Positions 2,909-5,261 are shown, numbered from the stretch's first letter. The stretch is 64,000 nt of DNA from an uncultured Pelagibacteraceae bacterium (GCA_902623075.1 CACNSD010000005.1:17093-81092); one strand, 5' to 3'. Numbers and translations: made by a program. Notes: generated by a model from the sequence alone, not told the origin.

Positions 2909-3058
2909 ATGAGTTTTTTTTTTGAATTCTATAAATTTTTAAAAATAAGAAAAAAATATTGGTTACTCCCTATAATTGTGATTTTAATGTTATTTGGGTT
3001 TTTAATCGTTCTTACTGAAGGCACAGCCGTAGCACCATTTATATATCAATTATTTTAA
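2909..3058 (+). CDS. DUF5989-like 49-aa membrane protein, copy 1 (not in ORF track)
   Basis: Hand translation: MSFFFEFYKFLKIRKKYWLLPIIVILMLFGFLIVLTEGTAVAPFIYQLF. The ATG is 1 nt after the carbamoyltransferase stop, and the TAA shares its last A with the ATG of the next gene (TAATG). RKKYWLLP...APFIY is the family signature as I recall it. Confidence 0.7.
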   Translation: MSFFFEFYKFLKIRKKYWLLPIIVILMLFGFLIVLTEGTAVAPFIYQLF

Positions 3059-3963
3059 TGGAATTTTTAAAAAAAAAATTGGAAAAGATAGAGAATATAT
3101 TTTCACACAAAATTGACAATAAGGTAACAAAAGATGTAACTAGCTTTTATAATATAAAACCCTTTCCAAATTACGATGAAAGTGACAACAAAGCTACAAT
3201 ATTGAACAAAGGTAATAAAAATTATTTAGCAAAGCAATTTAAAGATTTTGTTGGTTTTAAAAAAAAAGTGTTAGAAGTTGGATGTGGCACAGGTCAATTA
3301 TCAATGTACTTTTCAATCGGAACAAATAATGAAATAGTTGCTCTTGACCCTACAATTGAGTCTTTGAGATTAGCCAACAAATTTGCACTAGAAAATAATA
3401 TTCAAAATGTAAAGCTTGTAAATGCTGATATATTTGACGAAGTACTTAAAGATGATTATTTTGATTTTGTTTGGACTAATGGAGTTTTACATCATACAAA
3501 AGATCCAAAAAAAGCTTTTGAGATCACTGTTAAATCATTAAAAAATGAAGGATATATTTTAGTAGGTTTGTATAATAAAATAGGTCGTATCAGAACAAAA
3601 ATAAGAAAATATTTATATAAAATTTTTGGAAAAGGGATTGTCTTACTTCTGGACCCAGTTTTAAGAAATATCAAATCAGGATCTCCTGAACAATTAGATG
3701 CATGGATAAGAGATCAATATGAGCACCCGGTTGAAAGTGTACATACTATAGATGAAGTTTTAAAATGGTTTCATGAAAATAAAATTAAATTCATAAGTTC
3801 TGTGCCTAATTGCACAATTGACTTAGATTTAAATTATAATCTATTTGTTGAACAAGAAAAAGGAAATGTTTTTTATAGATGGTTAAACCAATTTTTTATG
3901 ATTTTTAACTTCCTAGGTGACGATGGAGGTTTATTTGTTTTGATAGGAAAAAAACGTGAGTAA
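3058..3963 (+). CDS. Class I SAM-dependent methyltransferase
   Basis: 301 aa. Motif I VLEVGCGTGQLS, post-I acidic residue (ALDP) and a later NGVLHH block. Coupled to both neighbours. Confidence 0.8.
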   Translation: MEFLKKKLEKIENIFSHKIDNKVTKDVTSFYNIKPFPNYDESDNKATILNKGNKNYLAKQFKDFVGFKKKVLEVGCGTGQLSMYFSIGTNNEIVALDPTIESLRLANKFALENNIQNVKLVNADIFDEVLKDDYFDFVWTNGVLHHTKDPKKAFEITVKSLKNEGYILVGLYNKIGRIRTKIRKYLYKIFGKGIVLLLDPVLRNIKSGSPEQLDAWIRDQYEHPVESVHTIDEVLKWFHENKIKFISSVPNCTIDLDLNYNLFVEQEKGNVFYRWLNQFFMIFNFLGDDGGLFVLIGKKRE

Positions 3964-4894
3964 ACAATTATTATTTATTAAGTTCCCAATTTTATTTCCA
4001 ATTATTTATGGCTCAGTGCTGTATATATTTCCTCAATATGAAACTGAGTTAATATTAATTACTATTTTGTTACTCGCTGAAACTCATTTTGGAGCTACTT
4101 GGCCATTTTTTTTATCTAAATCTAACGTTGAGCATATTTTAAATGATAAAATTAAATTATTTTTTTTTCCAGTCTTAATAATAATTTTTTCATTAATAGG
4201 CTTCTTTTTTTTTAAAAATCTTTTTTTGATGATTTTTTTTATGGCTAATATTTATCATGTTACAAGACAAAGCTTTGGTGTTTGTAAACTTTATACAAAA
4301 AATGAGCAGGAGATTAAATTTCAAGAAAAATTTATTTATATATTTAATTTTATGTTTTTTATAATCGCTTTTCTTAGATTCTATTATCCAGTTTTTGACA
4401 ATTTTAGTTTATTATACTTAAATTTAATTGTGTTATTATTGATACTATGCATAAGTATATTATATATAATTAAATTTAGTTTCTCCGAAAATTTTTTAAC
4501 TTTTATAACTGGTGTTATAATTTTTTATCCTACGTGTTTCGTAAGTAATCCTGTTCACGCTATAATAATGGGTGTAACTATGCATTATTCTCAATATCTA
4601 TATTTAACCAGTTATGTTGTTAAGAATAGAAAAAATGATGATTTTTTAAACACTGGTAAAAAAGCTAGTTTCTTATCAAATTTTTTATTTGTAGTAATTG
4701 TTTACTCTATCATAATGACTTTTTTTTCTACTTTTGGAAAAAGCCAAAATATAAGCTTAAGTAATTTGATAATTATACCAATTGTAGGTCAAATGTTACA
4801 TTTTTATTTAGACTCTCAATTGTGGAAATTTAGCATTCATCATAATCGTGAAAATGTTTTAAAATATATTTTAAAATTTATTAAATCAACTTAG
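3956..4894 (+). CDS. Polytopic membrane protein with four His motifs, unknown family
   Basis: 312 aa with roughly 8-9 hydrophobic segments. 8-nt overlap with the methyltransferase gene. His-containing motifs are ETHFGATWPF, NIYHVTRQSFG, GVTMHYSQYLYL and MLHFYLDSQLWKF. Confidence 0.6.
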   Translation: MSKQLLFIKFPILFPIIYGSVLYIFPQYETELILITILLLAETHFGATWPFFLSKSNVEHILNDKIKLFFFPVLIIIFSLIGFFFFKNLFLMIFFMANIYHVTRQSFGVCKLYTKNEQEIKFQEKFIYIFNFMFFIIAFLRFYYPVFDNFSLLYLNLIVLLLILCISILYIIKFSFSENFLTFITGVIIFYPTCFVSNPVHAIIMGVTMHYSQYLYLTSYVVKNRKNDDFLNTGKKASFLSNFLFVVIVYSIIMTFFSTFGKSQNISLSNLIIIPIVGQMLHFYLDSQLWKFSIHHNRENVLKYILKFIKST

Positions 4895-4948
4895 TAATAT
4901 ATATACAATCCTATAATAATTTGAGATAAAATATTGATAATATTAATA

Positions 4949-5165
4949 ATAATTTATGAATTACTTAATTGAAATTTTAAGATTTATTTTTCAAAGAAAA
5001 AAATATTGGTTATTACCTATAATTATTACTTTGATGTTATTTGGATTTTTAATCATCCTTACTGAAGGTACAGCAGTAGCACCATTTATATATACAATTT
5101 TTTGATAATTTATGAATTACTTAATTGAAATTTTAAGATTTATTTTTCAAAGAAAAAAATATTGG
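4949..5165 (+). repeat. Tandem direct repeat with 156-nt period; 61-nt perfect match at 4949-5009 and 5105-5165
   Basis: ataatttATGaattacttaattgaaattttaagatttatttttcaaagaaaaaaatattgg occurs identically twice. It covers 7 nt of leader plus the first 18 codons of DUF5989 copies 2 and 3. Confidence 0.9.
4956..5105 (+). CDS. DUF5989-like 49-aa membrane protein, copy 2 (not in ORF track)
   Basis: Hand translation: MNYLIEILRFIFQRKKYWLLPIIITLMLFGFLIILTEGTAVAPFIYTIF. Confidence 0.65.
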   Translation: MNYLIEILRFIFQRKKYWLLPIIITLMLFGFLIILTEGTAVAPFIYTIF

Positions 5166-5261
5166 ATTGCTCCAGTTTTAATTATATTGTTATTATTAGG
5201 AGGCCTTTTAGTTATCTCTCAAGGTTCTTCAGTGGCTCCATTTATTTATACAATTTTTTAA
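5112..5261 (+). CDS. DUF5989-like 49-aa membrane protein, copy 3 (not in ORF track)
   Basis: Hand translation: MNYLIEILRFIFQRKKYWIAPVLIILLLLGGLLVISQGSSVAPFIYTIF. It starts 6 nt after the copy 2 stop. Confidence 0.65.
   Translation: MNYLIEILRFIFQRKKYWIAPVLIILLLLGGLLVISQGSSVAPFIYTIF

Follow-up and report, generated by a model that had tools for sequence, protein, structure and literature searches.

Why should one bacterial locus carry three copies of a small membrane peptide that is encoded once in nearly all comparable loci, and how did the middle copy come to resemble parts of the other two? We consider these questions for a stretch of 64,000 nucleotides (nt) from an uncultured Pelagibacteraceae bacterium (GCA_902623075.1, CACNSD010000005.1:17093-81092), the whole of which is called the window here. 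Three open reading frames (ORFs) of the Pfam family DUF5989 (PF19451), named c1, c2 and c3 in their order on the plus strand, lie between its positions 2,909 and 5,261. The central result is that c2 is a mosaic: its N-terminal head is that of c3, and its membrane-spanning core belongs to the c1 type. Related loci carry a distinct middle gene in its place, and a remnant of that gene is still present in the window.

Each of the three ORFs has exactly 49 sense codons, as a first-pass annotation of this DNA had reported, and each covers positions 1-49 of the 49-position PF19451 model (E 6e-22 to 1e-20), with whole-protein hidden Markov model (HMM) scores of 73.5-77.9 bits at a gathering cut-off of 27 bits. 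NCBIfam holds no model for c1, c2 or c3, and a PDB sequence search with the DUF5989 profile returned no match. The first-pass annotation described the genes as unannotated, which is correct for its ORF track with a limit of 60 amino acids (aa) but not for the public gene calls, where the same ORFs carry PF19451 and in some sources are listed as 'DUF5989 family protein [Candidatus Pelagibacter sp.]'. The common features that it listed are borne out by the family alignment, in which the invariant columns of the R-K-K-[YF]-W anchor and of the C-terminus G-x-x-V-A-P-F-I-Y-x-x-F are kept in c1, c2 and c3, and c2 retains 18 of the 18 invariant family residues. An AlphaFold2 (AF2) model of c2, of moderate confidence (mean predicted local distance difference test score, pLDDT, 74), has helices at 2-13, 20-38 and 42-48 with a loop at RKKYW, and helix 20-38 is the predicted single transmembrane helix between the N-terminal helix and the short C-terminal one. 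A DUF5989 peptide is built of an N-terminal amphipathic helix, the R-K-K-Y/F-W anchor, a single transmembrane helix and the conserved APFIY tail. The genes are tightly packed. The c1 gene starts 1 nt past the stop of the carbamoyltransferase gene and its own stop overlaps the ATG of the methyltransferase gene, and in the related loci called type IV below the c3 stop overlaps the start of the gene Y370; such junctions suggest translational coupling. While c1 abuts the carbamoyltransferase gene, c2 and c3 are found 2 kb downstream of it within the same co-directional array.

The evidence for the mosaic is the distribution of differences along the gene. A site is counted as informative if c2 shares its nucleotide with c1 or with c3 but not with both, and there are 56 of these; with P for agreement with c3 and Q for agreement with c1, the pattern of c2 is PPPPPPPPPPPPPPPPP QQQQQQQQPPQPQQQPQQQQQQQQQQQPQQQPQQQ PPPP. 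All 17 informative sites of nt 5-38 pair c2 with c3, 29 of the 35 in nt 55-135 pair it with c1, and the last four (nt 139-144) pair it with c3. The one-breakpoint maximum chi-square is 26.2, a value that none of 20000 permutations reaches, and the two-breakpoint model gives 36.1 (0/2000 permutations). Identity between c2 and c3 is 54/54 in nt 1-54 and 61/96 beyond (Fisher p = 1e-8). The spatial clustering of parent-specific sites thus makes the mosaic statistically robust. The counts behind the original proposal were reproduced exactly: the tandem c2 and c3 with a gap of 6 nt (TAATTT), the perfect 61-nt repeat that they share, and 95 of 111 matching nt between c1 and c2 from the RKKYW codons to the stop. 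Because the identity of c2 and c3 takes in the 7-nt non-coding leader and all synonymous sites, it reflects recombination rather than convergence, and convergent selection for identical heads was ruled out on this ground. The 5' breakpoint can be placed only within gene nt 39-54, the last site shared by c2 and c3 being nt 38 and the first shared by c2 and c1 being nt 55. The RKKYW-coding stretch is the longest run common to all paralogues. Given the helices of the AF2 model, the breakpoint would lie between the head and the transmembrane helix, and the recombination junction would coincide with the predicted boundary between a cytoplasmic head and the membrane-plus-tail part.

It is the pairing of heads and cores in relatives that identifies c2, and not c1 or c3, as the chimera. 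We call the c1 type A, the c3 type C, and the middle paralogue of the type IV loci B. In relatives the head M-x-Y-[LI]-I-E-x-x-[RK]-F-I-F-x is always joined to C-type cores (types III and IV; L008-L023, L104-L107), and the head …F-x-x-F-L-[KR]-[IV] always to A-type cores. The parental types are found there unrecombined, A, B and C in L008-L023, C alone in L104-L107 and A alone in L113-L115, and among the loci compared the chimera is confined to the window type and to a second haplotype, the L005 type. The c2 head (nt 1-54) matches c3 orthologues at 45-54 of 54 sites, c1 orthologues at 37-40 and B at 35; the c2 core (nt 55-138) matches c3 orthologues at 49-51 of 84 sites, c1 orthologues at 73-74 and B at 59-61. 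When the core was compared with 130 collected DUF5989 genes, the next best after the c1 type reached 65/84. Peptides of the P0070 type share IIITL, IIL and TIF with c2 and were tried as donors of the core; they were rejected at the nucleotide level (65/84 versus 73-74/84 for the c1 type).

The two parts of c2 differ in how close they are to their resident counterparts. The head segment is identical to that of c3 (61/61), whereas the core agrees with the resident c1 at 73/84 sites (87%, dS 0.42) and with the c1 of type IV at 73-74/84; for comparison, the c1 of the window agrees with that of type IV at 72/84. As the core differs from the resident c1 by 13% and is not nearer to it than to the sister-clade c1, a simple recent c1-to-c2 conversion is excluded. 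The core would be a long-standing member of the c1 lineage or else have come in from an unsampled strain; it is not a fresh copy of the neighbouring gene. The first-pass annotation also saw a return to c3 at the 3' end. Four sites do match, but they lie in two adjacent codons, and 169 of 20000 permutations reach this block taken alone. The ending T-I-F is the family-wide consensus, Q-L-F being peculiar to the A type, and over its tail (nt 121-150) c2 has 2 differences from B, 4 from c3 and 5 from c1. Since T-I-F is the consensus and the tail is closest to B, a second switch back to c3 is not needed.

The related loci show what stood at this site before. With J for the SxtJ-like gene, K for DUF5989, CT for the carbamoyltransferase, MT for the methyltransferase and Mem for a membrane protein of 310-313 aa, they fall into types I to V. 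Type I, J-K-CT(-SGNH-like)-DAO, is the canonical form and is present in many Pelagibacter genomes and several other phyla. Type II, which is abundant, has the order J-CT-K(A type)-MT-Mem and lies next to NeuB/NeuC-type sugar genes; type III, J-CT-MT-Mem-K(C type)-Y368-DAO, has a single K copy and none after CT. Type IV, J-CT-K(A)-MT-Mem-X373-K(B)-42 nt-K(C)-Y370-DAO, is about 85% identical to the window (L008-L023), and type V, comprising the window and the L005 type, is type IV without X373 and with the chimeric c2 replacing B. Orthologues of c1 occur at the same position in L001-L018, L108 and L113-115, and those of c3 in L008-L023 and L104-L107, the c3 type being the sole copy in the more distant type III. 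The B paralogue (MNFFKEYWEYTKKRKKFWILPIVILLIIMGFLMIVTEGSVVAPFIYTIF) is distinct from A and C, is not a mosaic, and is preceded by X373, which encodes a 373-aa SGNH-like protein. The relatives do not, then, share the same three copies in a mosaic-free form: the sister clade has its own middle gene, the chimera is absent there, and the three-copy state appears to predate the mosaic. The window and type I genomes have flanks in common (DAO oxidoreductase, M23-like protein and SDR), as do types I and III (a thiamine pyrophosphate enzyme), and the locus types are therefore alternative fillings of one chromosomal site.

A part of B is preserved in the window. The 61-nt stretch before c2, seemingly intergenic, consists of a relic of the 3' end of B and the old spacer between B and c3 (Table 1). 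None of 5000 shuffles reaches the score with which 4897-4955 aligns to the B tail and spacer, and the relic includes the B-specific ATC codon; because these positions correspond to the B tail and the B-c3 spacer, c2 starts at the ancestral c3 start, behind the old spacer. The window is collinear with the sister-clade locus L008 up to 4898, the end of Mem, and collinearity resumes inside the DUF5989 genes. The last Mem codons differ in the window/L008 comparison (…KFIKST-stop versus …KIIN-stop), having been altered by the deletion. About 1.3 kb is deleted relative to the sister clade (L008 4682-5958), namely X373 and B codons 1 to ~44. The end of c2 holds a second tail-plus-flank copy, belonging to repeat family D4 (TATATATACAATTTTTTGATAATTT versus TATATATACAATCCTATAATAATTT in the relic); it is 189 nt downstream of the relic, nearly the 192-nt period from B to c3 in type IV.

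Table 1. Features of the DUF5989 locus, in window coordinates
Feature	Position	Strand	Description	Evidence or remark
SxtJ-like gene	700..1104	+	SxtJ-like small polytopic membrane protein, 134 aa	Pfam SxtJ PF19588 23.8 bits, just below the 24.4 cut-off
Carbamoyltransferase gene	1108..2907	+	NodU/CmcH-type O-carbamoyltransferase, 599 aa	Carbam_trans_N 350 bits, Carbam_trans_C 241 bits
c1	2909..3058	+	DUF5989 paralogue, A type (…LTEGTAVAPFIYQLF)	PF19451 77.9 bits
Methyltransferase gene	3058..3963	+	S-adenosylmethionine-dependent methyltransferase, 301 aa	Pfam Methyltransf_31/11/25
Mem	3956..4894	+	Polytopic membrane protein, 312 aa	Without family match; adjoins methyltransferase in types II-V
Relic of B	4897..4916	+	3' end of deleted B-type DUF5989, …ATA TAT ACA ATC CTA TAA = I-Y-T-I-L-stop (~18 nt)	Aligns to B tail of L008, L016
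Former B-c3 spacer	4917..4955	+	Now the c2 leader; TAATTT at both ends	Aligns with 42-nt B-c3 spacer of L016, L008
61-nt perfect repeat, first copy	4949..5009	+	7-nt leader and c2 codons 1-18	
c2	4956..5105	+	Chimeric DUF5989; codons 1-18 C (c3) type, 19-46 A (c1) type, end T-I-F-TGA	PF19451 75.2 bits
Crossover zone	4994..5009	+	AGAAAAAAATATTGG (R-K-K-Y-W) with flanking bases	Identical in c1, c2, c3
61-nt perfect repeat, second copy	5105..5165	+	TAATTT gap and c3 codons 1-18	
c3	5112..5261	+	DUF5989 paralogue, C type (RFIFxRKKYWIAPVLIILL…SQGSSVAPFIYTIF)	PF19451 73.5 bits
Y370	5272..6384	+	N-terminally anchored SGNH/AlgX-like protein	Weak Pfam Lipase_GDSL_2 (E 0.0012)
Oxidoreductase gene	6399..7703	+	Flavin adenine dinucleotide-dependent oxidoreductase (DAO family)	PF01266 in orthologous gene calls; conserved right flank of variable locus

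From these comparisons we infer the following order of events. The ancestral locus would have held three DUF5989 paralogues, each adjoining its own enzyme gene, with c1 (A) after the carbamoyltransferase, B after X373 and c3 (C) before Y370. The window lineage would have lost X373 and most of B, and c2 would have been born by homologous recombination inside the R-K-K-Y-W-coding run, keeping the old spacer together with a c3-type leader and head and acquiring a transmembrane helix and tail of c1 type. This could have happened by two routes. In route a, the tandem middle gene and c3 would cross over unequally within the RKKYW run and yield the order middle-chimera-c3; X373 and the first gene would then be lost, and the second spacer would collapse between its TAATTT repeats. 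In route b, the deletion would precede a 156-nt tandem duplication of c3, and a c1-type donor would afterwards replace the core of the upstream copy. After the two haplotypes had split, gene conversion over short tracts between the tandem copies seems to have homogenised the 5' ends of c2 and c3 again.

The age of the chimera can be judged from independent material. The c2-c3 arrangement is found in four independent assemblies (L001-L004), L001 being 99.9% identical over 6.1 kb, and three Tara scaffolds (L005-L007) represent a 95%-identical haplotype with the same mosaic, while a metagenome pattern scan for the c2-c3 junction gave one match, L001 again, and no new alleles. The chimera thus seems to be older than the split of two haplotypes differing by 5% and to be fixed in both. 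A private and recent event does not agree with this distribution, nor with the deletion of the 373-aa gene and most of B that went with the mosaic. Between the window and the L005 haplotype, 3 of 54 head coding sites differ in c2 and 3 of 54 in c3. In the window type c2 and c3 alike have CAA as codon 13, where the L005 type has GAA/GAG in its two genes, and the c2 and c3 heads differ at 0/61 nt in the former and 5/61 nt in the latter. One mutation and a short conversion tract would be the simplest account of the codon 13 pattern, which is suggestive of exchange after the split. Other exchanges concern the 3' ends. The c1 allele of L108 (3403-3552) equals the L005-type c1 up to nt 107 and c2 from nt 108 on, four linked changes turning Q-L into T-I, which is a separate conversion tract at the c1 3' end; 3' ends therefore also exchange in the population. 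In L005 (2619-2768), codon 45 of c3 is ATA as in c2, the other c3 genes, including those of L006 and L007, having ATT; either a further micro-conversion or a point mutation may lie behind it.

The first-pass annotation further invoked selection to keep several variants of the peptide. This is plausible: for c1, c3 and B, the ratio of non-synonymous to synonymous substitution rates (dN/dS) among orthologues is 0-0.14 (0.03-0.14 for c1, about 0.1 for c3), and the B genes of L008 and L016 differ by 7 synonymous and 0 non-synonymous changes. For c2 such selection is weakly shown, by five substitutions between alleles; the intact ORF and its residues appear compatible with function and do not amount to proof.

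How unusual three copies are was assessed by a pattern and tblastn survey with one genome per species, which gave 550 relatives. The best 80 of the 550 loci (L024-L103) were examined by HMM search in six frames, ±10 kb around DUF5989, and come from Pelagibacterales, other Alphaproteobacteria, Gammaproteobacteria, Nitrospira, Myxococcota, Bdellovibrio and Acidobacteriota. One DUF5989 copy is present in 79 of these 80 loci and two in L042, where the second is a weak, divergent match, so that the early remark on the oddity of three copies at one carbamoyltransferase locus was well placed. A carbamoyltransferase gene lies within 10 kb in 78 of the 80 loci and an SxtJ-like gene adjoins DUF5989 in nearly all. 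The peptide is highly conserved from phylum to phylum, with the anchor and C-terminal motifs of c1-c3 recurring throughout the 80 loci and the consensus …E[FL]WxF[ML][RK]xRKK[FY]WLLPI…GGLIVL[ST]QGSAVAPFIYT[IL]F. The family is a large one, with 5215 cluster representatives (50% identity) at E<=1e-3 in 1.84 billion, and none of the papers in the library searched names DUF5989. The second DUF5989-like ORF of L042 (9118-9348, minus strand; E 5e-4) ends in …FLPFLYALF and is on the strand opposite to the canonical trio of SxtJ-like protein, DUF5989 peptide and carbamoyltransferase; three tandem SGNH-like genes (5853-9114, minus strand) lie directly downstream of it.

With respect to function, c1-c3 are probably accessory peptides like SxtK of the saxitoxin clusters. 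They would be membrane subunits that hold the carbamoyltransferase and the SGNH/AlgX-like enzymes at the SxtJ-like membrane protein or couple these enzymes to it. This would serve the tailoring of a surface glycan, and the paralogues A, B and C would each go with a different enzyme module. A more specific idea, which we regard as a long shot, is that DUF5989 peptides are modular adaptors, the head meeting the carbamoyltransferase or SxtJ-like protein and the transmembrane helix and tail meeting periplasm-facing SGNH/AlgX-like transferases, so that c2 would be a natural domain swap that re-wired a pairing after X373 was lost. In a wider sense, the SxtJ-like protein, DUF5989, the carbamoyltransferase and the SGNH-like protein could form a trans-membrane relay that carbamoylates surface glycans, analogous to the AlgI/J/F/X acetylation relay.

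Taken as a whole, the account given above, from the genes, the mosaic and the relic through the three-paralogue ancestry to the birth of the chimera by recombination and an accessory-peptide function, seems to us likely to be right. Several points weigh against it. Routes a and b fit the data alike, and no near-identical donor of the c2 core was found, the best of the 130 genes reaching 74/84 (88%). Continued conversion is suggested by one shared site and a count of 0 versus 5 in two sampled haplotypes, and the accessory-subunit function is drawn from synteny. The five substitutions between c2 alleles, 3 non-synonymous and 2 synonymous, are compatible with neutrality, and searches of marine metatranscriptomes returned only short DUF5989-carbamoyltransferase junction contigs of other strains and none of this locus. 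The last two points would also suit the view that c2 is a functionless recombination scar of the loss of X373 and B, still intact as too little time has passed, and so would the disappearance of X373, its presumptive partner gene, and the rarity of the window-type locus (4+3 contigs, compared with 16 and at least 24 for sister-clade c3 proteins, besides the single match in the pattern scan). A scar is nevertheless unlikely in our judgement. The c2 ORF and all its invariant family residues are intact in seven contigs and two haplotypes, and c2 has changed no faster than its neighbours (145/150 versus 143/150 for c1 and for c3). A hand count of the changes private to its core gives about 2 non-synonymous and ~4 synonymous, where ~3:1 is expected under neutrality (binomial p about 0.04), and the adjoining relic of B shows what decay looks like here, with TTT turned into CTA and no ORF left.

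Recent intragenomic conversion, with c3 written over both ends of c2 and the resident c1 over its middle, would explain the P...Q...P order of sites, the perfect 61-nt identity with c3 and the clustering of the core with c1-type genes. Yet the core is as far from the resident c1 as from the c1 orthologues of ~15%-diverged genomes, the mosaic predates the 5% haplotype split, and the c2 cores of the two haplotypes do not track the resident c1 allele. The 3' block, for its part, is two codons with the consensus ending, in a tail nearer to B than to c3 or c1. We consider this reading very improbable; what survives of the original proposal is recombination among paralogues, but not the resident c1 as a recent donor. 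It might also be asked whether the tandem c2-c3 repeat was made in the assembly, or in a chimeric contig of co-occurring strains, as these are metagenomes of a highly microdiverse population and an exact repeat of 61 nt could mislead short-read assemblers. We give this next to no credence, and the arrangement is not an assembly artefact: it is present in the output of separate projects and of different assemblers (NCBI GCA_001757125.1, Tara k127 and SPAdes NODE contigs), the separate 95% haplotype has it in three Tara scaffolds, and a 264-nt contig of another run spans the c2 core into c3.

The region 700-7703 is one co-directional array built around the SxtJ-like protein, the DUF5989 peptide and the O-carbamoyltransferase, in a window that is AT-rich (G+C 22-35%). 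The neighbours, scanned against Pfam and NCBIfam over 122-6384, include no other sxt-type genes, Rfam gave no match in 1-9000, and a promoter and terminator scan remained at background level with no sign of the 61-nt repeat being an RNA element. The 312-aa Mem protein has no match in Pfam, NCBIfam or PDB; it has conserved histidines and in locus types II-V is invariably paired with the methyltransferase. X373 and Y370 are distant paralogues (pairwise E 6e-5), both with an N-terminal anchor, GDS/DxxH-like motifs and weak GDSL matches. Relatives of Y370 were found by an iterated profile in 41 of the 80 surveyed loci from several phyla, often directly after the carbamoyltransferase (for example L074 11990-12982, L025 6499-7674 and L030 8197-9480), and clearer members of the family in other loci exceed the GDSL_2 and ALGX thresholds of Pfam. 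This association with the trio recalls sxtL beside sxtI-J-K in the saxitoxin clusters.

Some observations on other strains concern the canonical trio. Metatranscriptome contigs matching window positions 5218-5262 and 5071-5103 run from the 3' end of DUF5989 into the start of the carbamoyltransferase gene and are type I transcripts; in type I loci of other strains the DUF5989 and carbamoyltransferase genes are transcribed together in nature. In P0241 (187 aa) and P0136 (150 aa) the SxtJ-like protein runs into DUF5989, either as natural fusions or as read-through gene calls, which would hint at two proteins acting together; a single-sequence AF2 model of P0241, examined for packing of the peptide on SxtJ, is uninterpretable (pLDDT 61, predicted template-modelling score 0.27). 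In the type II loci L113-L115 (4479-10647), J-CT-K-MT-Mem abuts genes for NeuB, a UDP-GlcNAc 2-epimerase-like protein, an NAD-dependent epimerase/dehydratase-type protein and a nucleotidyl-transferase, which would place this cassette in a nonulosonic-acid or surface-glycan region.

The mosaic by itself is an ordinary product of paralogue recombination. What is new is a form with several paralogues, one of them chimeric, in a peptide family already known though uncharacterised; its value is chiefly as a handle on the partners of DUF5989 and SxtK-like peptides. The locus series may be regarded as a natural experiment that begins with a single copy, goes on to three distinct copies with an enzyme gene beside each, and ends with a head/tail chimera, and it suggests which part of the peptide might meet which partner. 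At the scale of 150 nt, the chimera also shows how recombination within ~16 nt of shared sequence reshapes genes in a variable region of SAR11.

How does this locus compare with known systems? Within its own family, DUF5989 usually occurs as one copy between the SxtJ-like gene and the carbamoyltransferase gene. The window copies share the RKK[YF]W and APFIY motifs and the carbamoyltransferase locus with the rest of the family, whereas there are three of them, none in the canonical position, with two divergent sub-types (A: TEGTAVAPFIYQLF; C: WIAPV…SQGSSVAPFIY) and one chimera of both. Saxitoxin clusters contain sxtI-sxtJ-sxtK-sxtL, of which sxtK has 165 nt and sxtL encodes a GDSL lipase; SxtJ and SxtK are uncharacterised and have been hypothesised to act with SxtI, and a 2026 preprint describes the extra truncated copies sxtI2, sxtJ2 and sxtK2. 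The window resembles such a cluster in having an O-carbamoyltransferase, a 134-aa membrane protein of the SxtJ family, an ORF of ~50 aa and a GDSL/SGNH-type protein. It differs in gene order, J-I-K instead of I-J-K, and in its context, a SAR11 variable locus with methyltransferase, membrane, SGNH-like and DAO genes. SxtK, the putative cyanobacterial counterpart of DUF5989, has been an unexplained ORF since the saxitoxin cluster was first described; we presume that it belongs to the same Pfam family, and the likeness drawn here is one of size and neighbourhood only.

The O-acylation systems with AlgI, AlgJ, AlgF and AlgX offer another parallel, as here too N-terminally anchored SGNH/AlgX-like proteins stand beside small membrane proteins and a cytoplasmic group-activating enzyme. 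In contrast to them, the window has no MBOAT or AT3 acyltransferase, and the group transferred would be carbamoyl and not acetyl; as Y370 matches GDSL weakly, the analogy is a lead and not a claim of membership. As for the chimera, fusion of paralogues by unequal crossing-over or gene conversion is familiar from haemoglobin Lepore and from tufA/tufB in enterobacteria. The window shares with these cases a breakpoint in a conserved stretch common to the parents, parental types kept alongside, and concerted change of adjacent copies. It stands apart from them in its tiny scale, a gene of 150 nt recombined within a microhomology zone of about 16 nt, and in the position of the swap, at the boundary between head and transmembrane helix.

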